Below, one piece after another: positions 2,510 through 63,618 of a stretch of 64,000 nt of DNA. Source of the stretch: Myxococcaceae bacterium (GTDB taxonomy: Bacteria; Myxococcota_A; Polyangia; Polyangiales; Ga0077539); contig SCUS01000031.1 of assembly GCA_004297725.1 (NCBI GenBank), forward strand, positions 9,550-73,549, in the 5' to 3' direction. The position numbers and the translations under genes are program-made. Numbering within the stretch: the stretch's first letter is position 1; every line of letters starts with the position of its first letter. The notes below the pieces were generated by a model, which was given only the letters and a program-made list of their open reading frames with translations, had not been told where the DNA came from and made no database searches.

Positions 2510-2516
2510 GGGATGC

Positions 2517-5500
2517 TCAGTCCTCGTCGTCCTCGTCGCCGTGCCGCGGGGTGACCAGCAGCTCGCCGTTGGGGCCGTCGCGGCGGATGATGAAGGTACG
2601 CCGCGCGGCCACGTCGTCGCCCTCGCGCGCCACCACCGAGACGATGTTGGCGCCCGGCCGCAGCGGGAGCGGCGCGTTGAAGGTCATCCGGTGGGGATCG
2701 GCCGCGTCGCGGTTGGACAGGTAGAAGACCTTGTGGGGCCCGACGAAGATGTAGAGGTCGAGGACGCGGTTCTCGTCCGTGGCCGTGCCCTGGAGGTTGA
2801 TGGACGCGCCGCGCGCCGAGAGCGCCACCGGACCGTCGGTCTCGATGAGCGGCGGCGAGTTGTGGAGCACGAAGGTGAGCGAGCGCGGGGCCGTCGAGCG
2901 GGCGCCGCCGCCCTGCGCCCGGAGCGCCCAGCCCGGCCGGCCGTCGAGCGCGTCGACCCGCACCCACTCGCCCGACTGCGCCGTGATCGGGAAGCCGGAG
3001 CCCGCCGGGGCGCGGAGGATCACCCTCGCGTCGCTGGCGGGTGACTCCCGCAGCTCGAGGGCGGCCGCGGCCACGAAGGTGCCGGTGGCGGCGGTGACGG
3101 GCGCGCCCGCCTGGGCGATGGGCACCCGGAGCTTCTGCGAGGTGACCTCGCGGAGGTCTTCGTCCTCGACGACGAGCTCGAGCTTGAGCTCGTCCTGGCG
3201 GAAGCTCTGGGCCACGTCGAAGGTGAACGCCACGCGGCGCTCCTCGCCGGGCATCATGTCGTTGATGTTGAAGCGCGCGTCGTGCAGCAGCACGCCGGTG
3301 CCCGACAGGTTCTTGAGGTTGGCGCGCGCCACGAAGGTGCGGCCGCGCCCGACGTTCTTCAGCGTCAGGAACATCGTCATCCGCTCGCCGCGCTGGATGC
3401 GCCCGTCGCCGTTGCCGCTGCCGCGCTGCTCGGCGAACTGCCAGCCGTAGGCGAAGACCGGGCGCTCGAGGCCACGGATGGAGGCCCGCAGCGGCGCGAC
3501 GGCCTCCGCGGGGGGGATGTGCCCGTGCGACTCCGACCACTCCAGCCGGATGCCGTCGGTGCGGGAGAGGGCCGCGCGCGGCACGAGGCACACCTTGCGG
3601 GTGCCGGGCGCCGGGAGCGAGCTGCTGCCCGGGCGGAAGCCCTCGAACTCGCAGAGCCCGAGCGGCGAGGTCCAGGTGCGGGTCTCGCCGGGGTTCACGC
3701 GGCCGAAGACGAACTCCCGGTTCTCGAACATCGGGTTGTCGCTCTTGGTGTTGGCGCGCAGCCGGAAGAGGGGCGCGGTGCCGCGGTTGGTGACCGTCAC
3801 CGTGAGGTCGAAGGCCTCCCCCGGCGCGGCGGTGTTCTCCGGCCGCGAGGTGCGCATGGTGACCTCGACGTTGGGCGTCCCGCCGGCGTCGGTGCCCTCC
3901 TCCCAGTCGACGTGCAGGGGCTGCAGCGCGCGGGCGACGCTGGCCACCTGCTCGGCGCGGGTGCGGTCGAGCAGCGGGCGCGCGTCGGCGATGAGCTCGC
4001 GGCGGCCGGAGCGCGGCGCGGCGGTGAGCAGGTCGCGCACGAAGCGGATGGAGAAGTCCTCGCGGAAGCCGTCGTCGGCGACGTCGTCGGCGCCGCGCAG
4101 CCGGAGCTGCTCGCGCTCCTCCGCGGGGAAGTAGTACCGGACGGTCTCCGCGGGGTGGTCGCCGTTGTGGGCGCGGTTGTTGGTGAGGTGCGCCGAGAGG
4201 TCGGACTCGCGCGGGAAGAGCTTGTCCGCGTCGAGGTCCATGTCGAGCGGGTCGACGGTCATCGGCATGAGCTCGATGTCCGGCGTGATGCCGACGCCCT
4301 GGATGGAGACGTCGCCCGGGGTGAGGTACTGCGCGATGGTGATCTTGAGCGCGCCGCCGTCGGGCAGGTTGCGGATCGTCTGCACGCTCCCCTTGCCGAA
4401 GGAGGTGCCGCCCACGATGACCGCGCGGTTGTGGTTCTTGAGGGCGCCGGCGACGATCTCGCTGGCGCTGGCCGAGCCGCCGTCGATGAGCACGGCGAGG
4501 GGGTAGTCGGGCTCCGTGCCGGGGCCCTCGGCGCCGCGCTCCTCGCGCTCCTCGCGCCGGTTGCCCGCGGTCACGACGATGGCGCCGTCCTGGAGGAAGA
4601 GGTCGGCCACGGCCACGGCCTGCTCCAGCAGGCCGCCGGGGTTGCCGCGCATGTCGAGGACGAGCGAGCGCATGCCCTGCTCGCGCATCTGCCGCAGGGC
4701 GCGGGTGAGCTCATCGCCGGTGGTCTCGCTGAAGCTCTTGATGCGAGCGTACCCGACGCCGTTGGCCATCAGCCGGTGGTCGACGGAGCGCACGGTGATC
4801 TGCGCGCGCACGAGGTCGAAGCGACGGGGCTGGGCCCAGCCGCCGGCGCCCGCGCGGGTGACCCAGATGGTGACCGGGGTGCGCTCCGGGCCGCGGAGGC
4901 GGTTGACCGCCTCGGAGAGCGACATGTTGGTGGTGCTCTCCTCGTTGATCTTCACGATGCGGTCGTAGCGGTGCAGGCCCGCGCGCGCCGCGGGGGTCTC
5001 GGGCATGGGGTTCATCACCGTGAGCAGCCCGTCGCGGATGGAGATCACGATGCCGAGCCCGCCGAAGTGGCCGCCGGTCTGGATCTGCATCTCGTGAAAC
5101 TGCTCGGGGGTGAGCACCACCGAGTGGGGATCGAGGGTGCGGAGCATCCCGTTGGCGGCGATGTACTCCACGTCCTGGAGGTTGACGTCGGTGCCGCGCA
5201 GGTGGGTCTGGAGGAAGGTGAAGATCTCGCGCCAGCGGGCCTCGAGGTCCCACGGCGCGTTGACGCCCGCGAGGTCGAAGGTCTGCTCGTGGGTGTCGAC
5301 CCGCACGGTGAGCGTGGGGGCGTTGTCCTCGTGGAGCACCAGCACCTGGGCGACGCTGCGCTGGATGGCGTCGAGGCCCTTCAGCAGCATCTCTCGCGGG
5401 TGCACGCGCCCCGGGTCGACGTAGTTGTTGTTGATCTCCAGCAGCACGTGCCGGAGCACGCTCATGCGCGCCAGGTCGAAGTTGGGGTCGCGGGCGCGCT

Positions 5501-5642
5501 CACGCCGGGGCTGGGCGAGCAGGGCGCGGGAGCCGCCGAGGCCCAGCAGGCCACCGTGGCGGGTGACCGTGATGACCGAGGCGAGGGCGCAGGCGACGAG
5601 CAGCAGGGCTGCCTTCCAGGGACGGTTCCAGCTAGGGCGCAT
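2517..5642 (-). CDS. S41 family C-terminal processing peptidase with PDZ domain and a long C-terminal extension
   Basis: PDZ-like segment GGLGIVISIRDG...YDRIVKINEEST. S41 motifs LVLDMRGNPGGLL and GGSASASEIVAGALKNHNRAVIVGGTSFGKGSVQ. The ATG at 5642 precedes a signal/TM segment (WKAALLLVACALA); the track ORF starts at a GTG at 5678. Confidence 0.9.
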   Translation of the reverse strand: MRPSWNRPWKAALLLVACALASVITVTRHGGLLGLGGSRALLAQPRRERARDPNFDLARMSVLRHVLLEINNNYVDPGRVHPREMLLKGLDAIQRSVAQVLVLHEDNAPTLTVRVDTHEQTFDLAGVNAPWDLEARWREIFTFLQTHLRGTDVNLQDVEYIAANGMLRTLDPHSVVLTPEQFHEMQIQTGGHFGGLGIVISIRDGLLTVMNPMPETPAARAGLHRYDRIVKINEESTTNMSLSEAVNRLRGPERTPVTIWVTRAGAGGWAQPRRFDLVRAQITVRSVDHRLMANGVGYARIKSFSETTGDELTRALRQMREQGMRSLVLDMRGNPGGLLEQAVAVADLFLQDGAIVVTAGNRREEREERGAEGPGTEPDYPLAVLIDGGSASASEIVAGALKNHNRAVIVGGTSFGKGSVQTIRNLPDGGALKITIAQYLTPGDVSIQGVGITPDIELMPMTVDPLDMDLDADKLFPRESDLSAHLTNNRAHNGDHPAETVRYYFPAEEREQLRLRGADDVADDGFREDFSIRFVRDLLTAAPRSGRRELIADARPLLDRTRAEQVASVARALQPLHVDWEEGTDAGGTPNVEVTMRTSRPENTAAPGEAFDLTVTVTNRGTAPLFRLRANTKSDNPMFENREFVFGRVNPGETRTWTSPLGLCEFEGFRPGSSSLPAPGTRKVCLVPRAALSRTDGIRLEWSESHGHIPPAEAVAPLRASIRGLERPVFAYGWQFAEQRGSGNGDGRIQRGERMTMFLTLKNVGRGRTFVARANLKNLSGTGVLLHDARFNINDMMPGEERRVAFTFDVAQSFRQDELKLELVVEDEDLREVTSQKLRVPIAQAGAPVTAATGTFVAAAALELRESPASDARVILRAPAGSGFPITAQSGEWVRVDALDGRPGWALRAQGGGARSTAPRSLTFVLHNSPPLIETDGPVALSARGASINLQGTATDENRVLDLYIFVGPHKVFYLSNRDAADPHRMTFNAPLPLRPGANIVSVVAREGDDVAARRTFIIRRDGPNGELLVTPRHGDEDDED

Positions 5643-5737
5643 CGCGGCGGAGTATAGGGTGAAGCGTCGGGGTTGCACCCGTAACCCGCCAGATTGCCGC
5701 GCGGCCTGGGCGGCGGAGGGGGAAGGGCGAAGTGGGC

Positions 5738-6430
5738 TCAGGGACCGTCGGGGTCGTCGAGCCGCAGGGAGGCGACGAACAACCGGAGGCTCGCGTTGCG
5801 TGCCGCATGGGCGTCGAGGGTCCTGCCCTTGCGAAACTCCCGGCTGCGCTCGTCGTACTGCGCGAAGGTGCTCAGTTGGAAGTGACGCGCCCGCTCCTTC
5901 GCGGAGAGGGACTTGTTGACTGCGTCGTGGAGGCGTCGCTTCGGGTTCGGGAGGATGCCGGTCTCGGCCGCATCGCTCGCGTAGACGGTAAGCACCCAGG
6001 CGTCGGTCTCATCGACCGCGACGGCGTGGCGGATGTGCTCGACGAACTCTCCCGCGAGCCAACCGTTCATGGTCGCGACGACGCGCTCGCGCAGCGTGGC
6101 GACGTAGTTCGCGTCGCTCCGCGGCAGGCGGGCGACGTCGTAGCCCGGCATCTCGGCCTCCGCGGTGTCGATCTGGATCACCAGGAAGCGGTGCTCGTCG
6201 ACGGGGCTGTCGAGGAAGTCGCGGATCTTCTCGCGTTCCAGGCACTCGCGGCGTACGAGCTCCCAGTTGCTGTGCTGGGCCTCGCGGTGCTCGTGGAGGT
6301 CGGTCTCGTCCTCGTAGTACTCGGGGCGCAGCGCCTGGACGTCGCTGCGGTCGACCCCGAGGCGGCCCTTGAGGATGTTGAGGAGCACCGCGAGGTCGGC
6401 GCGGCCCTCCGCGATGATGCCGACGCGCAT
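5738..6430 (-). CDS. DUF4276-like (TOPRIM-like) protein, partner of the upstream ATPase
   Basis: 230 aa. The N-terminal MRVGIIAEGRADLAVL, central FLVIQIDTAEAE and HAVAVDETDAWVL resemble the conserved Glu / acidic / (D/E)E.(D/E)AW.L pattern I recall for DUF4276. It starts 3 nt after the ATPase stop. Confidence 0.7.
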   Translation of the reverse strand: MRVGIIAEGRADLAVLLNILKGRLGVDRSDVQALRPEYYEDETDLHEHREAQHSNWELVRRECLEREKIRDFLDSPVDEHRFLVIQIDTAEAEMPGYDVARLPRSDANYVATLRERVVATMNGWLAGEFVEHIRHAVAVDETDAWVLTVYASDAAETGILPNPKRRLHDAVNKSLSAKERARHFQLSTFAQYDERSREFRKGRTLDAHAARNASLRLFVASLRLDDPDGP

Positions 6431-6433
6431 CGG

Positions 6434-7633
6434 TCAGAACGCGGTCGGCAGCCCGCCGAGGTGGCCGCGCATCCAGAGCTCGGAGAGCATGCGCTTCTCG
6501 CCGCCCGCGTCAGGCTTCTGGCGGATGCGCCTCGTGACGGTGTGGCCCTCGTCGTTGCGCGAGACCACGAAGAGCCGCTGGTCGTCGTCGTGGAGGTTGA
6601 GCCCGTCGAGGATCGCGGGGTTGTGCGTGGTCACGAGCGCCTGCTTGTCGTGCTCCTTCGCGAGGGCGGCGAGCTGCTTCGTGAGCTCGCGGCAGAGGCG
6701 CGGGTTGAGGGCGGTCTCGATGTTGTCGATGGCGAAGACGCGGGGCGTGCGGTGGCTGCTGAAGAGCGTGAGGTAGAAGAGGATGTGGAGGATGCCCTCG
6801 TTGGCGTTCTCGGCGGAGAAGACGTTGTTCGAGGCGTCCATGAAGCGGTCGTGGAAGTAGAGCGTGGAGGTGCTGCGGCCGAGCTTGTAGCCCGCGAACT
6901 TCAAGCGGTCCTCGGGGTCGAGCACGACGTCGCTGACCCAGGAGATGAGCGCGAGGCGCTCGATGAGGGCGGCGCGCTGGGCGGGGTCGAAGGTCGAGAA
7001 GAGGACGTCGAGGTTCTCTCCGTAGATGCCAACGGGCTCGCGGCGGCTCAGCGGCTGGAGCCCGCGGAGGGCAACCGTGCTGAGGTTGTAGATCGCGAAG
7101 TCGTTGAGGAGGGAAGGAAGACTGACGCTGTTTGCATAGTGATCAATCGCGAGCTCAAGCTCTTTGAGTTCAATTCCCTCATCGTTGTGAAGACTTCCCG
7201 CGACAACTCTGGCCTTTGCGGCAGCGAGTTGACGATTGATGTCGACCAGGCGCGTCGCTCCCGTATCGATCGTCCGTTCTACGATCCACGTCGGAATGAT
7301 GTCGTTCGGATCCTTCGCGGTGATGCTGAACGCCAGCTCAGCATCATGCTTCTCCGCACCTCCAACATAGGAACAACCCAGCTCGATGCGCGGCTGTGCT
7401 GCCACGCCCAGGAATGAGCTCACCGTGATCGACGGCTTCGCGACGCGAACCCCCATGCTCGCGAGGTCTTCGGTGCCGAGGCGGCCGTTTCGGGCGCCGC
7501 TGGCCATCGCGAGCGCTTCGAGGAGGTTGGTCTTCCCGCAGCCGTTCTCCCCGATGAAGACGTTGAGCCGTCCGAGCTCCAGCGTCGTGTCGAGGATCGA
7601 CTTGTAGTTCTTGATGCGGAACGTCTTGAGCAT
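6434..7633 (-). CDS. AAA_21/AAA_15-type ABC-like ATPase
   Basis: The start MLKTFRIKNYKSI (Met37 of the track ORF) is typical of this family. Walker A GENGCGKTN, signature-like SAENANEG, Walker B RVFAIDNIE, H-loop LVTTHNP. Confidence 0.85.
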   Translation of the reverse strand: MLKTFRIKNYKSILDTTLELGRLNVFIGENGCGKTNLLEALAMASGARNGRLGTEDLASMGVRVAKPSITVSSFLGVAAQPRIELGCSYVGGAEKHDAELAFSITAKDPNDIIPTWIVERTIDTGATRLVDINRQLAAAKARVVAGSLHNDEGIELKELELAIDHYANSVSLPSLLNDFAIYNLSTVALRGLQPLSRREPVGIYGENLDVLFSTFDPAQRAALIERLALISWVSDVVLDPEDRLKFAGYKLGRSTSTLYFHDRFMDASNNVFSAENANEGILHILFYLTLFSSHRTPRVFAIDNIETALNPRLCRELTKQLAALAKEHDKQALVTTHNPAILDGLNLHDDDQRLFVVSRNDEGHTVTRRIRQKPDAGGEKRMLSELWMRGHLGGLPTAF

Positions 7634-7816
7634 GCGCCCGGAGGATCTCCGTCGGAGGGGTGCGTTCATCATGACCCGCGAGCGGAGCCGAGGGAAGAAA
7701 CGCCCGGAGCGGCGTTCAGGAGCGCAATGGGAGCACCCCACCGCTACGCTCGGGCACAGGCGCGTTGGGTGGGCGCGGCAGGGACGCGCGCCGTTCCGTG
7801 ATAGTTGTCGGGACTG

Positions 7817-9139
7817 ATGCGAGACCTCTCCCTCACGCTCGCTCTCGGCGTCCTCGTCGGCTGTAGCGGCGGTGCAGCCACTCCACCCACCGCGCTCCCC
7901 GACGCGGGCTCGCTGCCCCCCATCACGGCGCCCGACGCGGCGGTCGACGACCCCGCCTGGCAGGTGACGCTCTCCCGCACCTGGGCCCTCAAGGCCGACG
8001 GGCTCACCGCCGGCGACCGCGAGGTCACCGTGCGCGTCGCTGCCCCCGCCGACGCCGCCGACGTCCGCGCCTCGGTCGACGACGGGCCCGCGCGCGCCGC
8101 CCTCCGCGCGCCCGACGGATCATGGAGCGCGACGCTCCCGGTGGCCGACCTCGCCCCGGGCGCCCACGCCGTGCGCGTCGCGGCGGGCGCCTCCCCCGCT
8201 GCGGTCGCCACGCGCCCGCTGCAGGTGAGCTTCGCGGCCTACGTGGTGGTGTCCACCGACTGGGACGACACGCGCTTCACCGACAGCTACCTGCGGCGCA
8301 TCGAGCAGCTGCGCGAGCACCACCCGGGGCTCGTGTACTCGCACTTCTTCGCGCCCTACCACTACACCGACCCGGAGGTGAACGACGCGCGCGAGACCCA
8401 GATCGAGGCATGGGTGAAGGCTCAGCGCGACCAGCACGGCGACGAGCTCGGAGTTCACATCCACGGCTGGTGTCACTTCGTGACCGCGGCGGGCGTGCCG
8501 TGCCGCGTCCAGCCGGCGTACGCGCCCAACGACACCAGCGGGTACGTCACCGTGCTGGCGGCGTACACGGTCGACGAGATGGCGGCGCAGCTCCGGTACG
8601 CGGTGCAGCTCTTCGCGCAGCACGGCCTCGGCCGGCCGACCTCGTTTCGCGCCGGGGGGTGGACCGCCGACCTGGGCACGCTGCGCGCGCTCGACGCCAC
8701 GGGCTTCACCGTCGACTCGAGCGCGATGCGCCCGGACCGCATCGCCTCGTGGCGCGGCTACCTGCTCTACGACTGGAACGAGGCCAACTGGACGGGCATC
8801 ACCGACACCTCGCAGCCCTACCACCCCTCGGACACGGACATCACCCGGGGCGCTCCGGCGCGGCCGATGCGGGTGCTCGAGGTGCCCGACAACGGCATCC
8901 TGGTGGACTACATCACCGGGCCGGCGATGGTCGCGGTGTACGAGGCCAACGCGCCGGAGGGGCGGCCGTTGTCGCGGCCGACGCTGTTCCAGGTGGGCTT
9001 CCACCCGCCGAACTTCAGCCCGACGTACCAGTTGCGCATGGAGACCGCGCTCTCGCACGTCGACGCGCACCTCGCTTCGGCCGACCGCGGCCCCGCCGTC
9101 TACGCCCGCATCTCCGACCTCACCCGCGTCTGGCGCTGA
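7817..9139 (+). CDS. lipoprotein, possible deacetylase/glycoside-hydrolase-fold enzyme
   Basis: Signal peptide with lipobox LGVLVGC|SGG after the ATG at 7817 (the track start 7805 is a TTG). The motifs GVHIHGW and FRAGGW resemble polysaccharide deacetylase-like barrels. The function call is weak. Confidence 0.7.
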   Translation: MRDLSLTLALGVLVGCSGGAATPPTALPDAGSLPPITAPDAAVDDPAWQVTLSRTWALKADGLTAGDREVTVRVAAPADAADVRASVDDGPARAALRAPDGSWSATLPVADLAPGAHAVRVAAGASPAAVATRPLQVSFAAYVVVSTDWDDTRFTDSYLRRIEQLREHHPGLVYSHFFAPYHYTDPEVNDARETQIEAWVKAQRDQHGDELGVHIHGWCHFVTAAGVPCRVQPAYAPNDTSGYVTVLAAYTVDEMAAQLRYAVQLFAQHGLGRPTSFRAGGWTADLGTLRALDATGFTVDSSAMRPDRIASWRGYLLYDWNEANWTGITDTSQPYHPSDTDITRGAPARPMRVLEVPDNGILVDYITGPAMVAVYEANAPEGRPLSRPTLFQVGFHPPNFSPTYQLRMETALSHVDAHLASADRGPAVYARISDLTRVWR

Positions 9140-9145
9140 CCGCCG

Positions 9146-10402
9146 TCACCGCGTCGGCGCGGCCATTCCCTCGGGCGCGATCCAGTAGACTCCGCCTCCC
9201 TGGTCGTCGCTGAAGAAGAGCCGGCCGTCGCTCGCGAAGGTCACGTCGGTGATGCGCCCGACGATGCCCTGGGCGCTGCGCCCCCAGCCGGTGACGAAGT
9301 CGCGCCACTCGCCCGTCGGCCGGCCGCTGGCGTCGAGCGGGCTCCAGATGATCTTGGTGTTCTCCCAGGTCTGGAAGGCGCCGTGCAGCCCGACGAAGAA
9401 GCCGCGGCGCCAGGGATCGGGCCAGCGGCCGCGCTCGAAGTCGATGCCGAAGGGCGTGTCGTGCAGGGGCCACGCGGTGAGCTCCGCCGCCACCGCCGCG
9501 CAGCTCGCGCTGCGGCCGCGACCGGGAGGGGCGAGGTCGTTCTGCCCGGCGCAGCAGGGGTAGCCGTAGTCGCCGCCGGCCCCGAGGCGCACCAGCTTCT
9601 CCCTCCCGCGGGTGCCCGTGGACGGGTCCCACGAGTCGTCGGAGAGCTCGGCGGCGTAGCACTCCGCGCCCGAAGGATCACAGCGGAGGTAGAGCGGGTT
9701 GCGCAGCCCCGAGGCGACCACCACCGGCGCCATGCTCCCGGGCTGCAGCCGGAACACCGCGCCCTCCCGAGGCGTACTCGGGCACGTATAGCTCTGGTAC
9801 TGGCCCTGCGAGACGTAGATGGTCCCGTCGGCAGCGCGGGCGAGGGTGTGCGTCCATCGCGCGGCGGGCGAGAGGCCGGCGAGGGAGGCGACCTGCTCGG
9901 GCGCCGCGGAGCCGATGCGCCGCTGGGCCCTCGCGTAGGGCGTGCGAAACACCCCGTTGGTGCGGGTGAAGTAGAGCCAGCCATCGGCGAAGAGCAGCCC
10001 GTGGACGTCGGGCAGCCCCCCGGCGAACTCGCTGACCTCCGCGACGCCGTCGTGGTCGTCGTCGCTGAGCACCGCGATCTGGCCGGCTCCGGGCGGGGCG
10101 AGGCCCGGGGTGCGGATGCCCGGCGAGGCGACGAAGAGGTCGCCGTTGGGCGCGAAGGCGAGCACCCGAGGCGCGGCGATGCCCGCGAAGCGCCGCACGC
10201 AGAAGCCGAAGGGGAGGCCCGCGCGGGCCACGTCCGGGGCGGGGAGATCGCAGAACCAGGTCTCGCCCGGGACGCGGTCGAGCTGAGGACGCTCGGGGTG
10301 CACCACGCCCGCGTCGTAGCCCGACGGGCCGCTGTCGACGCACGAGGGGAGCCCGACGAGGAGGGCGACGAGGCTCAGGCTACGGACGTACTGCGCGCGC
10401 AT
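9146..10402 (-). CDS. PQQ-dependent sugar (glucose/sorbosone) dehydrogenase-like beta-propeller lipoprotein
   Basis: Lipobox LLVGLPSC. Repeated blade motifs NGDLFVASPG, DGTIYVSQG, GYPCC and DGRLFFSDDQGGGVYWI are typical of the SGDH family. Confidence 0.7.
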   Translation of the reverse strand: MRAQYVRSLSLVALLVGLPSCVDSGPSGYDAGVVHPERPQLDRVPGETWFCDLPAPDVARAGLPFGFCVRRFAGIAAPRVLAFAPNGDLFVASPGIRTPGLAPPGAGQIAVLSDDDHDGVAEVSEFAGGLPDVHGLLFADGWLYFTRTNGVFRTPYARAQRRIGSAAPEQVASLAGLSPAARWTHTLARAADGTIYVSQGQYQSYTCPSTPREGAVFRLQPGSMAPVVVASGLRNPLYLRCDPSGAECYAAELSDDSWDPSTGTRGREKLVRLGAGGDYGYPCCAGQNDLAPPGRGRSASCAAVAAELTAWPLHDTPFGIDFERGRWPDPWRRGFFVGLHGAFQTWENTKIIWSPLDASGRPTGEWRDFVTGWGRSAQGIVGRITDVTFASDGRLFFSDDQGGGVYWIAPEGMAAPTR

Positions 10403-10425
10403 GGGGAGGGGGAGGGAGAGGTCTA

Positions 10426-11943
10426 TCAACGGCGCGGCGGCGGCGGCAACCGGCGACGCCTCCGAGGGGACGCGACGATCAGGCCCAGCGCCGTCAGCAG
10501 GGCCCCGGCGCCCGCACCGGGCGTCGCGCCCGTCGCGACGCGGCAGTCGCAGCCGTCGCGCGGAGCGGCGGGAGCCGGACCGGCGTCGACGACGGAAGCG
10601 TCGCGCCCGGCGTCCAGCGAGGGGGCGTCGATCGAGGGCGCATCGAGGCCTCGAAGCACGTCGGGGGCGTCGGCCTGGCCGAGGTCGCCCGGCGTCGCGG
10701 GGACATCGACCCGGCCGCCCGCGTCGAGGGACACCTCCGCCGCGTCCTCGACCGCGTCGACGGCGCCCGCGTCATGGAACACCGGGTCGCGCGGAGCGCT
10801 CGCGTCGATGCTCCGGAGCGGCGCGGACACCGTCGGCCAGATGGAACCGCAGGTCGACCCCACGGGGGTGTCGCCGCCGCACGCTGCGGAGGGGCCGGCG
10901 AGCCGCCGGAGCGAGAGCAGCGGGTCGATGTGGTCGCCGCCGTCGCGCGAGCAGCCGAGCGCATAGCCGTCGGTCACCTCGTCGGCGCACACGAAGAGCA
11001 GCCCGGCGTGATAGCGGAGGCACTGCACCCCGACGTCGCCGCCGACGCGGGTCCAGGGGCCGCCGCGCACCGAGCGCAGGATGCCCTCCGCGCGGCTGGT
11101 GCTCGCGATCCACACGGTGTCGCCGTCGTCGGAGAGCGCGAAGCCCACCATCTCCGCGCGGGTCTCCCCGATGCGGCGGAGGGTCATCCCGCCGTCCTCG
11201 CTCTTGAGGAGCATCGTCCCGAGGCCCCGGGAGGCGCGCACGTACAGCACATCCGGCCGCCTCGCATCGACCCCCGCGAGGTAGATCCCCTGCGCGTCGA
11301 AGAAGTCGCGCGTGGTCTCGCGCACCGTGCGCCCGCCGTCGTCGCTGCGCAGCAGCACCGGGAGCCCGCCTCGCGCGTAGGCCGTCACGTAGACCCGCAT
11401 CGGATCGTTGGGCGCCACGTCCGCGGTCTCGGAGAAGTACCCCATGAGCCTCGCGCCGGTGGTCCAGCTCCTGCCGCCGTCGGAGGACAGCACCAGCGCG
11501 TCGTCGCCGGTGGGCCCGCCCAGCGCGACCATCGTGCGCCCGTCGAAGGTGTTGGTGACGTCGGCGTATCCCCTCATGGGAGCGCCCGCCGGCCGGGACC
11601 ATCGACAGTACGCCCCGTCGCTCACCGAGAGGCCGGCGAAGGTCGCGATCACCAGCGCGCCGTCCTGGCCGATGGAGAGCGACGGGTCGTTGGCGCCGAC
11701 GGCCTCGTAGGACTCCTCGCAGACCCACCCCCACTGGCGGCCGCCGTCGCGAGACAGCACCAGCCCGAAGGTGGTGCGCAGCGCCAGCACGTCGTTGCGC
11801 GCGCCCGGCCCTGCCACGAAGTAGTTCGCCGCGGGAAAGCGCCCGTTGGCCTGCGCCTCGCCCGCGACCGCCAGCCCGATCGCCAGCGCGCCGCCCCACA
11901 TCGCCGCCCGCGCTCCGCGCCGGGCCATCGCTCGTCTTGCCAT
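10426..11943 (-). CDS. BNR/Asp-box repeat protein with a MYXO-CTERM-type C-terminal sorting tail
   Basis: Asp-boxes SRDGGRQW, SSDGGRSW, RSDDGGRT, KSEDGGMT. The C-terminus DGCDCRVATG...ALLTALGLIVASPRRRRR has a Cys motif, a TM segment and an Arg cluster. The start is uncertain (Met20 or Met25 of the track ORF). Confidence 0.8.
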   Translation of the reverse strand: MARRAMARRGARAAMWGGALAIGLAVAGEAQANGRFPAANYFVAGPGARNDVLALRTTFGLVLSRDGGRQWGWVCEESYEAVGANDPSLSIGQDGALVIATFAGLSVSDGAYCRWSRPAGAPMRGYADVTNTFDGRTMVALGGPTGDDALVLSSDGGRSWTTGARLMGYFSETADVAPNDPMRVYVTAYARGGLPVLLRSDDGGRTVRETTRDFFDAQGIYLAGVDARRPDVLYVRASRGLGTMLLKSEDGGMTLRRIGETRAEMVGFALSDDGDTVWIASTSRAEGILRSVRGGPWTRVGGDVGVQCLRYHAGLLFVCADEVTDGYALGCSRDGGDHIDPLLSLRRLAGPSAACGGDTPVGSTCGSIWPTVSAPLRSIDASAPRDPVFHDAGAVDAVEDAAEVSLDAGGRVDVPATPGDLGQADAPDVLRGLDAPSIDAPSLDAGRDASVVDAGPAPAAPRDGCDCRVATGATPGAGAGALLTALGLIVASPRRRRRLPPPPRR

Positions 11944-12071
11944 TAGGTCTCTCGCGCCGATCCTGCCACGATTCGCCCCCGCGACGGCGTCGCGCGTCAC
12001 TGCGCTGCCCGCGTCGCACTGGACCTTCCCGGCACGACTGAGGCAACCTCCCGCTCGGAGAGCCCCTCGCC

Positions 12072-15000
12072 ATGCGTACCCTTCTGCTTCGTTCCGCTGC
12101 GCTCATGGCGCTGGCGATGAGTGTGTCCGCCTGTGCAGGCGGCCAGGTCGCCGAGATGGACGCGATGACCCCGGACGACTCGACCTTCGTCGACGACTTC
12201 GTCAAGGACCTCGACGGCCCGAACCCCGACTCGCCCCCGGAGCCGGGGCGCTGCGGCCAGGCCAGCCAGCGCTGCTGCGGCGGCACCGCGTGCGAGCGAG
12301 GGCTCGACTGCCGCGAGGGCGCGTGCTGTTCGCTGCCCGCCGCGACGTGCACCGGGGCGGGCGAGTGCTGCGACGGGATGCAGTGCGCGATGGGCCGCTG
12401 CTGTCACGCCATGGGCGACCGCTGCGACAGCAGCGCCGACTGCTGCGAGGGCACCACCTGCAGCGGCGGCACGTGCATGCCCACGGCCGCGTCGTGCGGC
12501 GCGATGGCCCAGCCCTGCTGCGCCAGCGACGTCTGCCAGGCGGGCTTCGCCTGCAACGCCGGGACGTGCGCGGCCTGCGGCGGCGCCGGTCAGGCGTGCT
12601 GCTCGGGCGCGACCTGCACGGGGACGCTGGCGTGCGTGGCGGACACCTGCCAGATGCCCGCGGCGTGCGGCGATCGGCTACAGCCGTGCTGCAGCGGCAG
12701 CTCGTGCAACGCCGGGCTCACCTGCGACGGCGGCGGGGTCTGCAACCCGGCCCCCGCGGCGTGCGGTGGCGACGGCCAGATGTGCTGCGGAACGGCCTGC
12801 AACCCGGGCCTGGCGTGCAACGCCGGCACCTGCGGCGCCGCGTCGGGGATGACCCCGTGCGGCAACAACGGCGAGGCGTGCTGCGGCGGTACGGCCTGCA
12901 ACAGCGGGCTCATCTGCACCAGCGCGCGCTGCGCGATGCCGACCGGCGGGGGCGGCGGGGCGTGCGGCGCCAGCGGCGAGACGTGCTGCGGCGGTACGGC
13001 ATGCAACAGCGGGCTCTCGTGCATCGGCGGGAGCTGCTCGGCCTCGATGCCCGGCGGCGGCGGCGGCATGACGCCCGGCGGCGGCGGCACCCCGGGGGCC
13101 TGCGGCGCCATCGGTCAGGCGTGCTGCGGCTCGGCGGCCTGCAACCTCGGCGCGGTCTGCTCGGGCGGAACCTGCGAGGCGGCCCCCACCCCGGGCAGCG
13201 ACGCCGGGGTCGGTCCTGGCGTCGACGGCGGCGGCGCGCCGGGGGCGTGCGGCGGTGACAGCGAGACGTGCTGCGGCGGGACGGCCTGCAACAGCGGCCT
13301 CACCTGCACCTCGGGCACCTGCCAGCCCGGCATGGGGATGATGGCCTGCGGCGGCGACGGCCAGGCGTGCTGCGGCACCGCGGCGTGCGACCCGGGCTTC
13401 ACCTGCAACACCATGACGCGGCGCTGCGCGGCGAGCACCACGCCGGTCTGCGGCGGCGACGGCCAGCGCTGCTGCGCCATGGACCGCTGCACCAACCCGT
13501 CGCTCTCCTGCGTCGGCGGCACCTGCCGCAGCTGCGGCTCGGCGGGCTCGGCCTGCTCGTCCGCCGGCGACTGCTGCTCCGGCCTGGCCTGCTCGGGCTC
13601 GGCCTGCACCGACGGGACGATGCCGCTGCCTCCGGGCTCGGCCTGCACCCCGGGCTCGATGCCCGCGTGCGCGACCGGCACCACCTGCTCCGACTCTCAC
13701 GGCTCCGACCGCTGCTGCCGCGCCGAGTCGGGCCGGTGCAGCGTCGACACCGACTGCTGCGGCGAGCTCTCGTGCCGCTCGGGCACCTGCCAGCGCAACG
13801 CCGCGGGCGGCGGCTGCAGCCGCGACTCGGACTGCACCTCGGGCAACACCTGCCAGAGCGGCCAGTGCCGCCCGATGGCCGAGGCGTGCCGGATGGCGGG
13901 CGCGTCGTGCATGACCGGCGGGCCGCGCTGCTGCGGGGCCCTGAGCTGCAACGGCACCGGCACCTCGGGCCGTTGCTGCAGCGCCGCGGGCTCGGCGTGC
14001 ACGGGCTCGGGCGACTGCTGCAACGGCCTCTCGTGCACCGGCGGCACCTGCGCCTGCTCGCCCGCGGGCCAGCGCTGCACCGCGAGCGCGGACTGCTGCG
14101 GCAGCGCGACCTGCGTGGGCGGCATGTGCCAGTGCCGCGCCCGGGGCCAGAGCTGCGCGGCCGACGGCGACTGCTGCACCGGGATGACCTGCAACAGCGG
14201 GGTGTGCTCGATGTGCGCCACGCCGGGCTCGACCTGCACCCCCGGCAGCGGGGCGGCGTGCTGCTCGCCCTCGCAGTGCCGCTCGGAGATCACCTCGACC
14301 TTCTGCTGCGTGCAGCAGAACGAGGGGTGCACCCGGGACATCGACTGCTGCGGTCACATGCTCTGCGAGAGCGGCCGCTGCGCCTGCCGCGTGGAGGGCC
14401 GCGGCTGCCGGGAGAACAACGAGTGCTGCTCGGGCCTGAGCTGCCAGAGCAACGTCTGCCGCCGCGCGCCCATGGACGGCGGCACCGGCTCGGACGGCGG
14501 CGGCACCGGCTTCGACATCCCGCGCATCGACGGCGCGGCGGGCGACGCCCGGGTCGACGGCGCCACCGGCGACGGCGGGATGTGCATCGCCGCGGGGCGC
14601 GTCTGCGTCCAGGGTTCGACGGCCTGCTGCGGCGACTACTCTTGCGGCGCGCAGCCGGGCGGAACCTTCTGCTGCCGCCCGGCGATGGGCGCCTGCACCA
14701 CCTCGCGCGAGTGCTGCGGCTCGATGCTCTGCACCAACGGCGCGTGCGTGTGCCGTCGCCGGGAGGAGTCCTGCTCGGCGAACCTCGACTGCTGCGGCGG
14801 GGCCCGCTGCAACCTGCCCGACGGAGGCACCGTCGGCACCTGCGCGTGCAGCCAGGCCTCGGAGAGCTGCACCTCCAACGAGGGCTGCTGCTCAGGCCTC
14901 ACCTGCCGCAACGGGCGGTGCCTCGCGATGGGCTGCCTCGCCCCGGGCGAGCGCTGCGACAACACCGACGCCGGATCCTGCTGCGGCGGCTACGCGTGCA

Positions 15001-15323
15001 ACGTGCAACCGAGCGGGCAGAGCACCTGCTCGCGCGGCCCCGCGCTGGTGACGACCGACCCGCCGACGACCTGCATGACCGGCGCGGAGTGCGCTGGTAG
15101 CGTGCTGTGCACGGGCGGTGTCTGCGTCTGCCGCCGCGGCGGCGAGTCGTGCTTCTACTCCAACGACTGCTGCGGAGCGATGCTCTGCATCCGCCCGGGC
15201 GGCGGGTCGACGGGCATGGGCACCTGCCAGTGCCAGGCCAGCGGCAACGGCTGCCGCATCAACGGCAACGACTGCTGCTCGGGGGCGTGCCGCTCGACCC
15301 CGACCGGCGATCGCTGCCCCTGA
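12072..15323 (+). CDS. giant cysteine-rich repeat lipoprotein (about 27 six-Cys modules)
   Basis: Signal peptide with lipobox AMSVSAC|AGG. Tandem modules of the form CG..G..CC....C..G..C....C and C......C.....CC....C....C run the full length. All antisense ORFs are Ala/Arg/Gly junk. Confidence 0.85.
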   Translation: MRTLLLRSAALMALAMSVSACAGGQVAEMDAMTPDDSTFVDDFVKDLDGPNPDSPPEPGRCGQASQRCCGGTACERGLDCREGACCSLPAATCTGAGECCDGMQCAMGRCCHAMGDRCDSSADCCEGTTCSGGTCMPTAASCGAMAQPCCASDVCQAGFACNAGTCAACGGAGQACCSGATCTGTLACVADTCQMPAACGDRLQPCCSGSSCNAGLTCDGGGVCNPAPAACGGDGQMCCGTACNPGLACNAGTCGAASGMTPCGNNGEACCGGTACNSGLICTSARCAMPTGGGGGACGASGETCCGGTACNSGLSCIGGSCSASMPGGGGGMTPGGGGTPGACGAIGQACCGSAACNLGAVCSGGTCEAAPTPGSDAGVGPGVDGGGAPGACGGDSETCCGGTACNSGLTCTSGTCQPGMGMMACGGDGQACCGTAACDPGFTCNTMTRRCAASTTPVCGGDGQRCCAMDRCTNPSLSCVGGTCRSCGSAGSACSSAGDCCSGLACSGSACTDGTMPLPPGSACTPGSMPACATGTTCSDSHGSDRCCRAESGRCSVDTDCCGELSCRSGTCQRNAAGGGCSRDSDCTSGNTCQSGQCRPMAEACRMAGASCMTGGPRCCGALSCNGTGTSGRCCSAAGSACTGSGDCCNGLSCTGGTCACSPAGQRCTASADCCGSATCVGGMCQCRARGQSCAADGDCCTGMTCNSGVCSMCATPGSTCTPGSGAACCSPSQCRSEITSTFCCVQQNEGCTRDIDCCGHMLCESGRCACRVEGRGCRENNECCSGLSCQSNVCRRAPMDGGTGSDGGGTGFDIPRIDGAAGDARVDGATGDGGMCIAAGRVCVQGSTACCGDYSCGAQPGGTFCCRPAMGACTTSRECCGSMLCTNGACVCRRREESCSANLDCCGGARCNLPDGGTVGTCACSQASESCTSNEGCCSGLTCRNGRCLAMGCLAPGERCDNTDAGSCCGGYACNVQPSGQSTCSRGPALVTTDPPTTCMTGAECAGSVLCTGGVCVCRRGGESCFYSNDCCGAMLCIRPGGGSTGMGTCQCQASGNGCRINGNDCCSGACRSTPTGDRCP

Positions 15324-15364
15324 CCGGCGTCCGGGTAGACCGCCCGCCGGTCCCTTGATGCGCT

Positions 15365-15391
15365 CGCGCGGACGCTGGTAGCGTTCGCGCG
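15365..15391 (+). promoter_or_regulatory. GC-rich stem-loop abutting the next start codon (terminator of the upstream gene or a 5'-UTR structure)
   Basis: CGCGCGGACGCT-GGT-AGCGTTCGCGCG forms a 12-bp stem with one G.U pair and a 3-nt loop. It lies 42 nt after the stop at 15323 and ends 1 nt before the ATG at 15392. There is no U-tract. Confidence 0.3.
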
Positions 15392-15982
15392 ATGAACGCC
15401 CCCAGCCGCTATCTCGTCGCCATCGTCATCGCCAGCAACCTGATGGGCTGTCAGCTCATCAAGAAGTTCACCGATCGCAACAACGACTCGGGCGCTGCGC
15501 CGACGGGCACCACCGTGGTGACGCTCGACGGCGGCGGCATCGCGCTGCCCAACCCCAACGTCGTCGCGTACGACGCCGCGGCCTGGGCCGACGCGGGCGC
15601 CGCAGCCAACGCGGCGATGGCGGCGGCCAACGCGGCGATGGCGGCCGCGGCCGACGCCTCGGCGCAGGCCGGCCAGGCGCTGCAGAACGCGCAGAACACC
15701 CTGGGCGACGCCGGGGTCAACACGGCCGCGGCCGCTCCCGGCGCGGCGGAGGCCGACGCGGGCGCGGCGATGGCGGCCCCCCCGGGTGTGGCCCCGACGG
15801 CCCCGGTGGTCGCCGCTCCGTCGTCGCCCGCCGCTGCCGAGCCCGCCGAGGAGCCCGAGCAGGCCGGGCGCCGCCCGTCGCGTCGGCACGACGACTACTG
15901 CCGCCGGCACCCCGGGCAGCTGCACCCGCGAACGGGCCAGATCTGCCCGAACATCCTCGGGTCGCAGAACCTCCAGCGCTGA
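15392..15982 (+). CDS. Ala-rich lipoprotein
   Basis: MNAPSRYLVAIVIASNLMGC|Q lipobox. Low-complexity Ala-rich middle with an AANAAMAAANAAMAAA repeat and a Cys-containing C-terminus. Confidence 0.6.
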   Translation: MNAPSRYLVAIVIASNLMGCQLIKKFTDRNNDSGAAPTGTTVVTLDGGGIALPNPNVVAYDAAAWADAGAAANAAMAAANAAMAAAADASAQAGQALQNAQNTLGDAGVNTAAAAPGAAEADAGAAMAAPPGVAPTAPVVAAPSSPAAAEPAEEPEQAGRRPSRRHDDYCRRHPGQLHPRTGQICPNILGSQNLQR

Positions 15983-16043
15983 CCGTCCCTTCGCCCTCCG
16001 CGTGACCCTCGTACGCCTCGAGAGGCTGCGCTCCCCGGGTTCG

Positions 16044-16445
16044 ATGACCCACAGGGAGTGCGGCGACTGCACCGTGTGCTGCTCCGTGATGGCGGTGACG
16101 GAGCTGCGCAAGGCGTCGCGGCGCTCCTGCGAGCACGTCGGCCCCGAGGGCTGCCGCATCCACCCCGAGCGCCCGGCGAGCTGCCGGGAGTTCCACTGCC
16201 TGTGGCTGCGGGGCGCGGTGGCGGGCGACGAGGCGCTGCGGCCTGACGCGCTCGGGGTGATGTTCGACTACTTCGTCACCCGCGGCACCGGCGAGGAGCA
16301 CCTGATCGCGTTCGAGCTCTGGCCCGGGGCGCTCGACGAGCCCGCGGCGCGGTCGCTGCTGGAGGAGCTCGCTCGCACCCACGAGCTGCGCCTCTCCTAC
16401 CGCGACGGCCGCTGGAGCTCGCTCGCCTCGGAGCCCGCTCCCTGA
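16044..16445 (+). CDS. YkgJ/UPF0153 family zinc/iron-chelating Cys-cluster protein
   Basis: The internal ATG gives MTHRECGDCTVCC...CEHVGPEGCRIHPERPASCREFHCLW, the CxxCxxCC...C pattern of the YkgJ family. The upstream part of the track ORF is Pro/Arg junk overlapping the previous gene. Confidence 0.7.
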   Translation: MTHRECGDCTVCCSVMAVTELRKASRRSCEHVGPEGCRIHPERPASCREFHCLWLRGAVAGDEALRPDALGVMFDYFVTRGTGEEHLIAFELWPGALDEPAARSLLEELARTHELRLSYRDGRWSSLASEPAP

Positions 16446-17034: not shown

Positions 17035-18501
17035 TTAGTGCGGGAAGACGCCCTTGACGTAGAGGCCGACGCCCACCCCGACCAGCAGCAGCGCGGCCAC
17101 GACCGCCAGCAGCGCCGCCGGGAACTTCTTCCCCTCCGTCGCCGCCTGGGGAGGCTGGCCGAGGGGGGCGTACGACTGGCTTCTCACCAGCGAGGTGGGC
17201 TGCGGGGGCTTCGGCGTGGGGGGGCGATCGGAGACGGGCGCGTCCGGTGCGTCGCCCTCGAGCTCGTCGGCGAGGTTGCCCGGCGGCGTGGAGACGGCGG
17301 CCGAGACGCCGTCCAGGGGAGACTCCCAGGCGATGCCCGTGCGGCTCGGGCGGCCGTCGTCCAGGAGGTCGCTGGCCCACTCGCCGACGTTCTCGAAGTC
17401 CCCGGCGTCGAGCGGCCGAGCGCCCTCGGCGTTGGGGTTGGAGCCCGCGGTGCCGGTCTTCGCGGCGGGCGACGGGCTGTGCGGGTCGTCGAGGGAGGTG
17501 AAGCGCAGCAGCTCTTCCTGGATGAGCTGGTCGATGACCGAGCCGTCCTTGCGGGTGAGCGTGGCGGCGCCCTTGCGCTCGGCGACGGCCTCGTTGACGA
17601 CGCGCGCCAGGTCCTGCGCGCCGACGCGCATCTTGTTGCCGAAGATGAAGTTGAGCAGCTCGTCGCTGAAGGCGGCGGCGTCGGCGTAGCGGACGCGCTT
17701 GTCCTTCGCGAGGGCCACCGCGAGGATGTTCTCCAGTTCCTCGGGCACCGCGGGGTTGATGGACCGCAGCGACGGCACCACGGCCTGCTGCACCATCTTC
17801 ACGGTCTGGTAGTCGGTCTCGCCCTGGAAGAGCTTCCGCCCGGCGAGCATCTCCCAGAGCATGATCCCGACGGCGAAGATGTCGGCCTGGGCGTCGGCCT
17901 CCTGGCCCATGGCCGTCTCCGGGGCGAGGTAGCTGAACTTCCCCTTCACCACCCCGGGCTCGGTCTTCTCGACGGAGTGCGCGGCCTTGGCGAGGCCGAA
18001 GTCCACGATCTTCACCTCGCCCTGCCGGGAGATCAGCACGTTGGGGGGCGAGATGTCCCGGTGGACGATGTGCAGGTCTTGATTGTCCGAGTCGTGCAGG
18101 TGGTGCGCGTACTGGAGCCCCTCGCAGACCTTGATGGCGATGTGGCAGGCGAGGGCCATCGGGAAGGCCTGGCGCTTGTTGCGGAGGTTCTCGATGAGGT
18201 GCTTGAGGTTCACCCCGTCGATGAACTCCATCACGATGAAGTAGGTGTTCTCGACGCGGCCGATGTCGAACACCTGCACGATGTTGGCGTGCGAGAGCCT
18301 CGCGCTCAGCCGGGCCTCGTCGAGGAACATCCGGATGAACTTCTCGTTCGACGCCAGGTGCGGCAGGACGCGCTTGATGGCGACCTGCTTCTTGAAGCCC
18401 GCGACGCTGGTGGCCTCGCCCCGGAACACCTCCGCCATGCCGCCGGACTCGAGGCGTTCGGTGACTCGATAGCTGCTCTGCGCCCGTGCTTCGGAGGCCA
18501 T
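17035..18501 (-). CDS. Hanks-type Ser/Thr protein kinase with a C-terminal TM anchor
   Basis: GGMAEVFRG...AIKRV (Gly loop and Lys), HRDISPPNVLI, DFGLAKA, APE. C-terminal hydrophobic segment AALLAVVAALLLVGVGVGLYV. The ATG at 18501 is preferred over the TTG at 18543. Confidence 0.9.
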   Translation of the reverse strand: MASEARAQSSYRVTERLESGGMAEVFRGEATSVAGFKKQVAIKRVLPHLASNEKFIRMFLDEARLSARLSHANIVQVFDIGRVENTYFIVMEFIDGVNLKHLIENLRNKRQAFPMALACHIAIKVCEGLQYAHHLHDSDNQDLHIVHRDISPPNVLISRQGEVKIVDFGLAKAAHSVEKTEPGVVKGKFSYLAPETAMGQEADAQADIFAVGIMLWEMLAGRKLFQGETDYQTVKMVQQAVVPSLRSINPAVPEELENILAVALAKDKRVRYADAAAFSDELLNFIFGNKMRVGAQDLARVVNEAVAERKGAATLTRKDGSVIDQLIQEELLRFTSLDDPHSPSPAAKTGTAGSNPNAEGARPLDAGDFENVGEWASDLLDDGRPSRTGIAWESPLDGVSAAVSTPPGNLADELEGDAPDAPVSDRPPTPKPPQPTSLVRSQSYAPLGQPPQAATEGKKFPAALLAVVAALLLVGVGVGLYVKGVFPH

Positions 18502-18562
18502 GGAAGGGGTTTGGACTCGATCCTTGGAGAGGGGGGCAACCAATGGTTCTAGGGGTTGTGCA

Positions 18563-21241
<2,679 letters not shown>

Positions 21242-63609: not shown

Positions 63610-63618
63610 CGATCAACC

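Follow-up and report, generated by a model that had tools for sequence, protein, structure and literature searches.

A 2,049-bp segment of contig SCUS01000031.1 from a Myxococcaceae bacterium is best explained as a cassette of two genes that was acquired horizontally, is inherited as a unit and belongs to PDC-M31, a candidate class of PADLOC. The segment lies in the 64,000-nt stretch of this contig that was analysed (the window), and all coordinates refer to the window unless a locus label (L0xx) is given. It encodes an ATP-binding cassette (ABC) ATPase and, downstream of it, a smaller partner protein. On balance, we consider it probable that the two proteins form an ATPase-gated nuclease module of defence, which would act in conflict with phages or plasmids and work like PARIS or OLD.

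The class assignment comes foremost from the ATPase. It matches the PADLOC profile PDC-M31A with an expect value (E) of 6.7e-85 over its full length (residues 1-397 against positions 1-394 of the 395 in the model), about 60 orders of magnitude above PDC-M25A, HEC-01A, AriA, AbiLi, mad3, NsnB, Old and GajA of the same database. The partner matches PDC-M31B weakly, at 2.1e-7 (residues 2-89 only) and 3.1e-5 (residues 1-147). All members of its family, 39 homologues that are 39-78% identical to the window protein, match this profile in a similarly weak manner (best 2.6e-11), and 25 of the 39 match HEC-01B (best 7.4e-7).

The inserted segment and the spread of the gene pair

The contig L085, which derives from a metagenome and represents a close relative, presents an exact empty site without window positions 5721-7769. 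Window 2516-5720 aligns to L085 6775-9979 with 92.8% identity and window 7770-16433 to L085 9966-18584 with 85.6% identity, and neither protein of the cassette is encoded anywhere in L085. At the empty site (L085 9937-10001), start codons of the two divergent genes that flank the cassette in the window are separated by about 63 bp. The junctions carry imperfect direct copies, 14-15 nt long, of the target sequence, which reads TGGGCATGGGAGGGA in the empty site.

Base composition sets the segment apart as well. Its GC (guanine plus cytosine) content is 0.662 versus 0.725 and 0.745 in the flanks, and GC content at third codon positions is 0.87/0.93 versus 0.98/0.95. Among 500-nt intervals across the 64 kb, the six with the lowest GC content all fall inside the cassette, with values of 0.602-0.624 against a mean of 0.729 (standard deviation 0.031). 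A sequence-only reading of this DNA, which our analysis followed up, had called the pair the only clearly AT-enriched DNA of the window. The lowest values are indeed found there, but the word "only" has to be given up: milder dips occur at ~600-1300 (minimum 0.644, near 0.8 kb), ~17800-18700 (0.636, 18.1 kb) and ~62500-63900 (0.634, 63.2 kb).

We favour an insertion at this site over a deletion in L085 because of the composition of the segment and because synteny is absent elsewhere: the genes that flank the cassette in the window were found at no other Myxococcota locus. Neither the 2,049-bp segment nor its ~63-bp intergenic site contains an integrase, a transposase or a tRNA target. Repeats inside 5600-7900 are short and at chance level, and there are no terminal inverted repeats. 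The insert is present in L001, which is a closer relative with 94% identity. Split matches to the cassette genes in L001 were considered as a sign of their decay, and this was rejected, since the flanking S41 gene is frameshifted there in the same way; such frameshifts are typical of long-read assembly errors.

The two genes travel together. The ATPase gene is located directly upstream of the partner gene, on the same strand, in 78 of 80 loci, and the remaining two loci end at a contig edge. Identities of the two proteins to their counterparts co-vary (r=0.83, n=70). At the same time the pair is rare: 108 relatives were found in 185,579 species genomes (~0.06%), and among 1.84 billion representatives there are 156 clusters at E<=1e-30, 541 at 1e-10 and 819 at 1e-3. 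Six phyla or more contribute to this scattered set, which has members in Myxococcota, Bacteroidota, Ignavibacteria, Gammaproteobacteria, Desulfobacterota and Sericytochromatia as well as a single metagenome-assembled genome of a Firmicute, and the stand-alone two-gene form dominates in Myxococcota and many other lineages. The island-like, patchy distribution that had been anticipated from the sequence is thus borne out by the empty site, the low frequency and the phylogenetic spread. As a side observation, one contig of a Myxococcaceae metagenome-assembled genome (CAYUSB010000011.1) harbors two diverged copies of the cassette, L020 and L030, ~165 kb apart; a large open reading frame (ORF) beside the L030 copy contains the bpX6 domain of MoxR-vWA-beta-propeller ternary systems (1.1e-19).

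Relatives of the pair reside on several mobile elements. Plasmid carriers include mobilizable MOBQ plasmids of Acinetobacter (10-13 kb), the mobilizable 5.8-kb plasmid pMARC2 of Paracoccus, about one third of which is filled by the pair, and a plasmid of Pseudanabaena (L084). A canonical PDC-M31 pair (A 4e-184, B 3.2e-92) is present on the conjugative plasmid pE5_001 of Enterobacter hormaechei (L083). This canonical pair (L083 8075-11182) is situated just upstream of genes for a SAVED-domain protein and a ThiF-family adenylyltransferase, a setting reminiscent of CBASS-type neighbourhoods. In gut Phocaeicola, Bacteroides and Odoribacter (L058, L061, L062, L064, L067, L068, L070 and L073), the pair follows just downstream of a gene for a DnaG-type primase of 1100 residues (Zn_ribbon_DnaG, DNAG_N, Toprim_2), found at all eight of these loci. 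Copies of the element in different genera share 94-96% identity, and the identity to L086 (IMG/VR_UViG_3300045988_174354), a contig classed as viral by IMG/VR, amounts to 97.6-99.5%.

Carriage of this kind would also fit a module that primarily serves addiction, stabilization or competition between elements, through post-segregational killing or plasmid exclusion, with the nuclease as a toxin, the ATPase as its regulator and phage defence as no primary role. A pair that takes up a third of pMARC2, accompanies small MOBQ plasmids and rides on a Bacteroidales element with its own primase is what such a role would lead one to expect. We nevertheless hold it to be unlikely. The copy in the window is a bare 2-kb chromosomal insert without genes for replication, integration or transfer; many other loci are chromosomal with housekeeping neighbours; and the closest characterized architectures (PARIS, OLD, Gabija and one HEC-01) are anti-phage. 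Defence and a benefit to the carrying element are not mutually exclusive.

The arrangement of the locus is summarized in Table 1. The ORF list agrees with the initial description of two minus-strand genes for proteins of 399 and 230 residues, separated by 3 nt (6431-6433) with the ATPase gene upstream, and both ORFs are intact. The ATPase ORF extends over 6434..7741 (-) if its first GTG is taken as the start, and the internal ATG at 7633 yields a protein beginning MLKTFRIKNYKSI (the MLKTF form). The latter start is supported because, for nearly all related loci, tblastn alignments set in with the first residue of the MLKTF form; in the same comparison the 36-codon extension from GTG 7741 has no support from homologues. 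The neighbours had been described as an S41 protease and a lipoprotein gene. The protease was recovered with its S41, PDZ and SH3 domains; the other gene has a lipobox (LVGC) but not a single Pfam domain. A consensus scan of 5400-8000 gave no sigma-70-like promoter, and a terminator scan of the same region gave a single terminator-like site, on the wrong strand. Because no terminator-like site was found in the 59 bp between the partner stop and the S41 start (5679-5737), transcription read-through from the cassette into the protease gene, which lies on the same strand, is possible. Elsewhere in the window, positions 59692-59958 give a weak methyltransferase-like tblastn match (E 0.004).

Table 1. 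Features of the cassette and its surroundings in the window
Feature	Position	Strand	Description
Inserted segment	5721..7769	.	2,049-bp indel relative to L085; two genes, 136-bp leader and 17 bp past the partner stop
Left junction repeat copy	5707..5720	.	TGGGCGGCGGAGGG; from junction alignments
Right junction repeat copy	7770..7784	.	TGGGCGCGGCAGGGA; from junction alignments
Partner gene	5738..6430	-	230-residue ORF
ATPase gene	6434..7633	-	399 residues, ATG at 7633
Leader/promoter region	7634..7769	-	136 bp that precede the ATPase ATG within the inserted segment; contains in-frame GTG 7741
Downstream flank gene	2517..5678	-	Peptidase_S41+PDZ+SH3 protein (Pfam)
Divergent upstream flank gene	7805..9139	+	lipobox (LVGC) at N-terminus; lipoprotein-like

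The ATPase and its partner

The proposal that the larger protein is an ATPase of the AAA_21/AAA_15 kind was confirmed, as both Pfam thresholds are passed (AAA_15: 9.7e-18, 65.4 bits, threshold 32.1; AAA_21: 1e-17, 65.6 bits, threshold 27). In PDB its sequence matches a single entry, Thermus scotoductus OLD (6p74), of which the first 46 residues are covered. Matches to NCBIfam are all far below threshold, with 41.4 bits versus a cut-off of 420 for MADS3 and 39.7 versus 172 for RecF. Walker A (GxNGxGK[ST]N, residues 28-36), SAENxNEG (273-280), Walker B (FAIDNIE, 300-306) and the H-loop (TTHNP, 335-339) are essentially invariant in an alignment of 74 family sequences. The motifs quoted in the sequence-only reading are therefore all present, and invariant or nearly so among these 74 ATPases and the 39 partners.

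The RecF-RecR architecture likewise combines an ABC ATPase with a Toprim protein, and the ATPase weakly resembles the N-terminal regions of RecF and RecN. One could thus imagine a housekeeping pair for DNA repair. We give hardly any credence to this idea: the RecF score remains far under its cut-off, the pair is missing from L085 with its otherwise collinear flanks, and its occurrence in ~0.06% of species genomes, its carriage by plasmids and mobile elements and its atypical composition all argue against it.

Walker A, the Walker B aspartate and the H-loop expected of an ABC ATPase are all in place. Its Walker B is nevertheless atypical. It contains IDNIE (302-306; window 6720-6734, residues 300-306), so that Asn304 replaces the catalytic glutamate. 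This asparagine is kept in 72 of the 74 family members, and the acidic residue E306, two positions further, is conserved. Asparagine also occupies the position in all four plasmid homologues of PDC-M31A and is replaced by serine in a copy from a phage-like contig (L088): PDC-M31A-type proteins of L081-L084 have D-N-[IL]-[ED], L088 has D-S-F-D, and the clade carries LNP for LHP. As a control, D-E...LHP is kept by two AAA_21 ATPases that are encoded at these loci and are unrelated to the clade, versus the D-N...LNP of the clade itself. In AriA, the E393A mutant is ATPase-defective, i.e. AriA has a functional Walker B glutamate (PMC11464382). The motif pattern leads us to expect that ATP binding is retained in the window protein, while hydrolysis would be slowed, lost or rerouted; the clade-wide D-N/LNP combination suggests an ATP-binding switch with impaired hydrolysis.

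The partner is less easily placed. It gives nothing in Pfam at E<=1 and nothing in NCBIfam, and its 39 family members give no DUF4276, DUF4435 or Toprim family at E<=10. AriB, DUF4435 and mad4 are matched neither by the partner nor by its family, and AbiLii is not matched by the window protein. Distant versions of the pair, which were recovered by tblastn of plasmids with both proteins, provide the bridge. The partner on the Pseudanabaena plasmid is annotated as a "DUF4276 family protein" and scores 31.6 bits against PF14103 (threshold 30.2), and the Acinetobacter plasmid partner matches PF14103 over its full length (1.5e-4). For profile-profile comparison, a DUF4276-positive family was compiled from 28 homologues of the Pseudanabaena protein, 27 of which match PF14103. 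In hhalign, the partner family matches this family with 99.7% probability (E 9.2e-27, 201 columns), the Acinetobacter plasmid partner with 99.1% and canonical PDC-M31B with 90.2% (E 1.6e-6). Because of these comparisons with PF14103-positive relatives, the partner is classified, at the level of sequence profiles, as a remote but genuine protein of the DUF4276 superfamily, beyond the reach of the Pfam model. The earlier naming of a DUF4276-type partner therefore holds as superfamily homology, although the PF14103 match that was predicted along with it is absent.

Many cyanobacterial homologues of the DUF4276 partner (P0130, P0133, P0140, P0183, P0186, P0209, P0214, P0219 and others) are named "phage tail protein" in NCBI and UniRef. 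Given their homology and their pairing with the ATPase, these names look like a propagated misannotation. In another protein, P0298 (406 residues), residues 259-396 match the partner profile over its initial 138 positions, and it could be either a fusion of ATPase and partner or a frameshifted gene call.

The AlphaFold2 model of the partner is confident (predicted score in the local distance difference test, pLDDT, 91.9; predicted template modelling score 0.89). In it, residues 1-150 form a core of the alpha/beta type, and residues 163-225 make up a C-terminal domain of helices. In order, the elements are beta1 (2-6), E8, alpha1 (10-24), beta2 (31-33), a helical insert, beta3 (81-88, ending with D88), a helix (109-124), beta4 (133-138), the E140/E141/D143 cluster and the C-terminal helical domain. 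As far as the order of secondary structure elements is concerned, this fits Toprim. E8, G9, D12, D41, D44, A90, E91, E141 and W145 are invariant in the 39 homologues, D88 and E140 are nearly so, and D143 is also among the conserved acidic residues. The EGxxD motif (E8, G9, D12) is invariant even in 54 sequences that span the partner family and the DUF4276-positive family. The second motif differs: the partner has D88-T-A90-E91 (DxAE) and not DxD, where no fewer than 90% of members retain D88 and all of them A90/E91, while DxD is intact in the DUF4276-positive relatives, in canonical PDC-M31B and in the Acinetobacter intermediate. An insert (residues 37-55) with the invariant D41 and D44 (DETD) is modelled at low confidence and is absent from the cyanobacterial family.

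A possible function and its alternatives

If the pair is a defence module, we propose that it works as follows. The ATPase would dimerize on ATP, and its role would be that of a sensor or switch rather than a motor. Because its Walker B reads Asp-Asn and lacks the catalytic glutamate, ATP binding, rather than fast hydrolysis, probably sets the state of the ATPase. The ATPase would hold or gate the partner, a predicted metal-dependent nuclease, whose putative acidic site comprises E8/D12 and D88/E91, perhaps together with E140/E141/D143. A cue derived from a phage or plasmid would then license the partner to cut nucleic acid. As a result, the infected cell might stop growing or die, or alternatively the invader might be destroyed. 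The substrate could be DNA, as suggested by a sister clade with methyltransferase and helix-turn-helix (HTH) domain, or tRNA, as suggested by PARIS. Our analysis itself documents the gene structure, the homology class, the linkage and co-variation of the two genes, their rarity, patchy spread and carriage on mobile elements, the indel with its empty site and the changed motifs. Beyond this, we infer that the two proteins interact, that the partner is active as a nuclease, that a trigger exists and that the pair confers defence.

There are several points that weigh against this proposal. Firstly, the structural check for a TOPRIM fold, recommended by the sequence-only reading, gave no confirmation. 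Foldseek found no significant match for either of two confident AlphaFold models, the full-length partner (searched against PDB and BFVD) or its core (residues 1-160, pLDDT 85.2; searched against PDB). The best E across the searches was 0.33, 0.12 and 0.031, with no Toprim near the top; GajA came 13th with E 0.74, and a viral protein resembling RloB was 29th with E 1.3. A PDB sequence profile search with the partner-family alignment returned 0 matches at E<=10. The hhalign comparisons with a single RloB sequence and with the Toprim domain of DnaG were not significant, and the sole local match to the latter was the EGxxD motif. The TOPRIM assignment of the partner could not be confirmed in this way and rests on the EGxxD and beta3-Asp motifs together with the literature, in which DUF4276 and RloB are placed in the Toprim superfamily, whose hallmarks are a glutamate in the loop between beta1 and alpha1 and a DxD that follows beta3 (PMC12065111), and HEC-01B is described as TOPRIM-like in the preprint of Payne et al. 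(bioRxiv 10.1101/2024.01.29.577857). Secondly, both presumed active sites deviate from expectation. In the ATPase, no glutamate directly follows the Walker B aspartate, and in the partner, the exchange of DxD for DxAE may mean that catalysis is altered or lost. Thirdly, the genomic context is hardly that of a defence island. The neighbours in the window are a protease and a lipoprotein-like gene, and a census of 108 nearest-neighbour ORFs at 59 loci yielded, aside from a methyltransferase that recurs in one clade, heterogeneous, largely housekeeping genes with few defence genes among them (mad3-like, AriA-like, AbiLi, DRT, GajB, PDC-S10). Enrichment in defence islands is weak. Finally, the searchable literature contains no experimental test of PDC-M31, nor any paper that mentions it, and for HEC-01, which comprises an ABC ATPase with a TOPRIM protein, no defence was observed in one study (bioRxiv 10.1101/2024.01.29.577857). 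The statement that no functional characterization of this exact pairing exists agrees with our literature search.

The unusual active sites could also mean that the pair is inert or repurposed. It would then bind without cutting or hydrolysing, acting as a regulator that binds nucleic acid or protein, or it might be a decaying relic. A90 stands in place of the second aspartate of DxD in 39 of 39 partners, Asn304 is found in nearly all ATPases, and no structural match to active TOPRIM nucleases was obtained, as such a reading would have it. We regard it as improbable all the same. Both changes are kept, together with many invariant acidic residues including E91, in a family whose members are 32-55% identical, a pattern that suggests a remodelled site under purifying selection and speaks against decay. 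Moreover, the D-N/D-S form of Walker B is common to the whole PDC-M31A clade, including its plasmid and phage-like copies, and both ORFs in the window are intact.

No third gene is conserved throughout the family; its recurrent neighbours are clade-specific, namely the above-mentioned primase at 8 gut Bacteroidales loci and a methyltransferase at 20 Bacteroidota loci. The latter is a type II methyltransferase (Eco57I/N6_Mtase) encoded upstream of the ATPase. At L071 (4516-8672), for example, the methyltransferase gene overlaps a 551-residue ATPase ORF by 4 nt, and a DUF4276-like partner follows. The first 150 residues of this ATPase constitute the HTH domain of BsuBI/PstI restriction endonucleases (PF17728, 4.5e-37). 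The same extension occurs at 21 loci with 47-64% identity (L071, L040, L042, L047-L050, L052-L057, L059, L060, L063, L065, L066, L072, L074, L080), and the methyltransferase is seen at all of them except L049, which ends at a contig edge. By its gene content, this sister clade looks like a restriction-modification-type system built on a pair of ABC ATPase and DUF4276 protein; the literature search found no paper combining "BsuBI" and "ABC ATPase". A different arrangement is found in a metagenome-assembled genome of Candidatus Parabeggiatoa (L022 9426-11185), where a second, unrelated AAA_21 ATPase (2e-36) and an RloB-like protein (3.5e-18) are encoded ~740 bp downstream of the pair. In this case, two pairs of ATPase and Toprim-like protein therefore stand in tandem.

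With regard to the Bacteroidota clade, one might suspect that the window pair is an orphaned restriction half, left over from a module of methyltransferase, HTH-ATPase and partner after loss of the methyltransferase. The 21 loci with the PstI-type HTH fusion, 20 of them with the Eco57I-type methyltransferase, demonstrate that modules of such composition exist. We consider this origin very improbable, however: the window ATPase has no HTH extension, no methyltransferase adjoins the window pair and no related one is encoded nearby, the stand-alone forms are dominant, intact and conserved in Myxococcota and other lineages, and the insert is cleanly delimited, with no more than two genes between its ends.

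We return to the ATPase-gated nuclease, of which a bolder version can be formulated. The PDC-M31 clade might represent a distinct branch of ABC-ATPase immunity, in which a hydrolysis-impaired switch gates a DUF4276-like nuclease with a rebuilt site (DxAE, EE/DETD); the Bacteroidota clade would then be an undescribed ATP-dependent restriction-modification architecture and the myxobacterial pair its methylation-independent relative. This is a tentative idea that we would not yet bet on. If the pair is active, Myxococcota would be added to the range of the immunity based on ABC ATPase and Toprim-like protein, the architecture found in OLD, Gabija, PARIS and HEC-01. The pair would in addition offer a compact test case of two genes in 2 kb, with three natural variants at hand: an ATPase whose catalytic glutamate is missing, a candidate nuclease in which DxAE stands for DxD, and a sister clade with methyltransferase and PstI-type HTH. 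These variants could show whether ATP binding alone suffices for sensing in this superfamily, and whether one effector pair can serve as an abortive-infection or a restriction module.

Relation to known systems

The closest relative of the pair is the canonical PDC-M31. Gene order is identical, spacing is similarly tight, the ATPases are homologous over their full length and share Walker B of the D-N-x-[DE] type as well as LNP, and the partners have EGxxD and the beta3 aspartate in common. There are differences, too. The window and canonical ATPases are ~32% identical, and the window partner has diverged far (2.1e-7 with partial coverage, versus 3.2e-92 for a canonical one) and contains DxAE and the DETD insert. 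We infer that PDC-M31 is one of the "phage defence candidates" released with the work of Payne et al., whose text does not name it.

DUF4276 proteins are homologous to the window partner over their full length and follow the same order of motifs, i.e. EGxxD...NIL, hhhIDT, AIAV...W and N-SL-F. The pair on the Pseudanabaena plasmid is similar in its composition, with a DUF4276 protein next to a PDC-M31A-type ATPase that is 36% identical to that of the window. In contrast to DUF4276, the window family has DxAE for DxD, EETD for HSIE and an extra acidic insert at 37-55. Mad4 of the MADS system is a DUF4276 homologue as well (PMC12065111). MADS itself was considered and rejected, as the MADS3 score falls far short of its cut-off, mad4 is not matched and neither a methyltransferase nor any other MADS gene is located nearby.

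PARIS resembles the pair in having two genes, for an ABC (AAA_15/21) ATPase and for a small separate effector that is reported to be of TOPRIM type, and in its frequent location on mobile elements; the window ATPase matches AriA of PADLOC at 3.2e-24. PARIS also provides the template for the mechanism proposed above: AriA sequesters AriB, a TOPRIM nuclease of the DUF4435 family, and recognizes the trigger in an ATP-dependent manner, whereupon released AriB dimerizes and cleaves tRNA-Lys (PMC11464382). PARIS was rejected as an assignment, since the partner is not a DUF4435 protein and does not match AriB. A further difference is the Walker B glutamate of AriA (E393), which contrasts with asparagine in the window clade.

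HEC-01 is a candidate of the same architecture that is embedded in Hma, and the window ATPase matches HEC-01A at 1.2e-25. The matches are weaker than those to PDC-M31, however, and the window copy is not embedded in Hma. Experiments on HEC-01 disagree: besides the above-mentioned study without defence, there is another in which one representative was protective against at least one phage (PMC12881386).

OLD and GajA couple an ABC ATPase to a (putative) Toprim nuclease, and the PADLOC profiles Old and GajA are matched at about 1e-13 to 1e-14. In these proteins ATPase and Toprim are fused, and Gabija adds the helicase GajB; the similarity to the window protein is confined to the ATPase N-terminus. 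Both systems were rejected because ATPase and partner have an ORF each in the window and no helicase is encoded in the 2-kb segment. AbiL was rejected as well: AbiLi is matched at 4.9e-21, far below PDC-M31A, and AbiLii is unmatched by the window partner. The Acinetobacter protein is the sole relative to match AbiLii (4.3e-4).

Taken together, the earlier classification as a candidate of OLD/PARIS/AbiL class remains valid for the architecture, an ATPase with a TOPRIM-type protein as in PDC-M31, and fails for the individual systems. Judged by these comparisons of sequence, the pair is outside OLD, Gabija, PARIS, AbiL and MADS and is a divergent member of the class PDC-M31. New in this work are a partner family that is invisible to Pfam and was joined to DUF4276, and a clean combination of insertion and empty site; the gain is modest. 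The architecture is familiar and its class is already catalogued by PADLOC, of which the myxobacterial cassette is a clean example and not a new kind of system.

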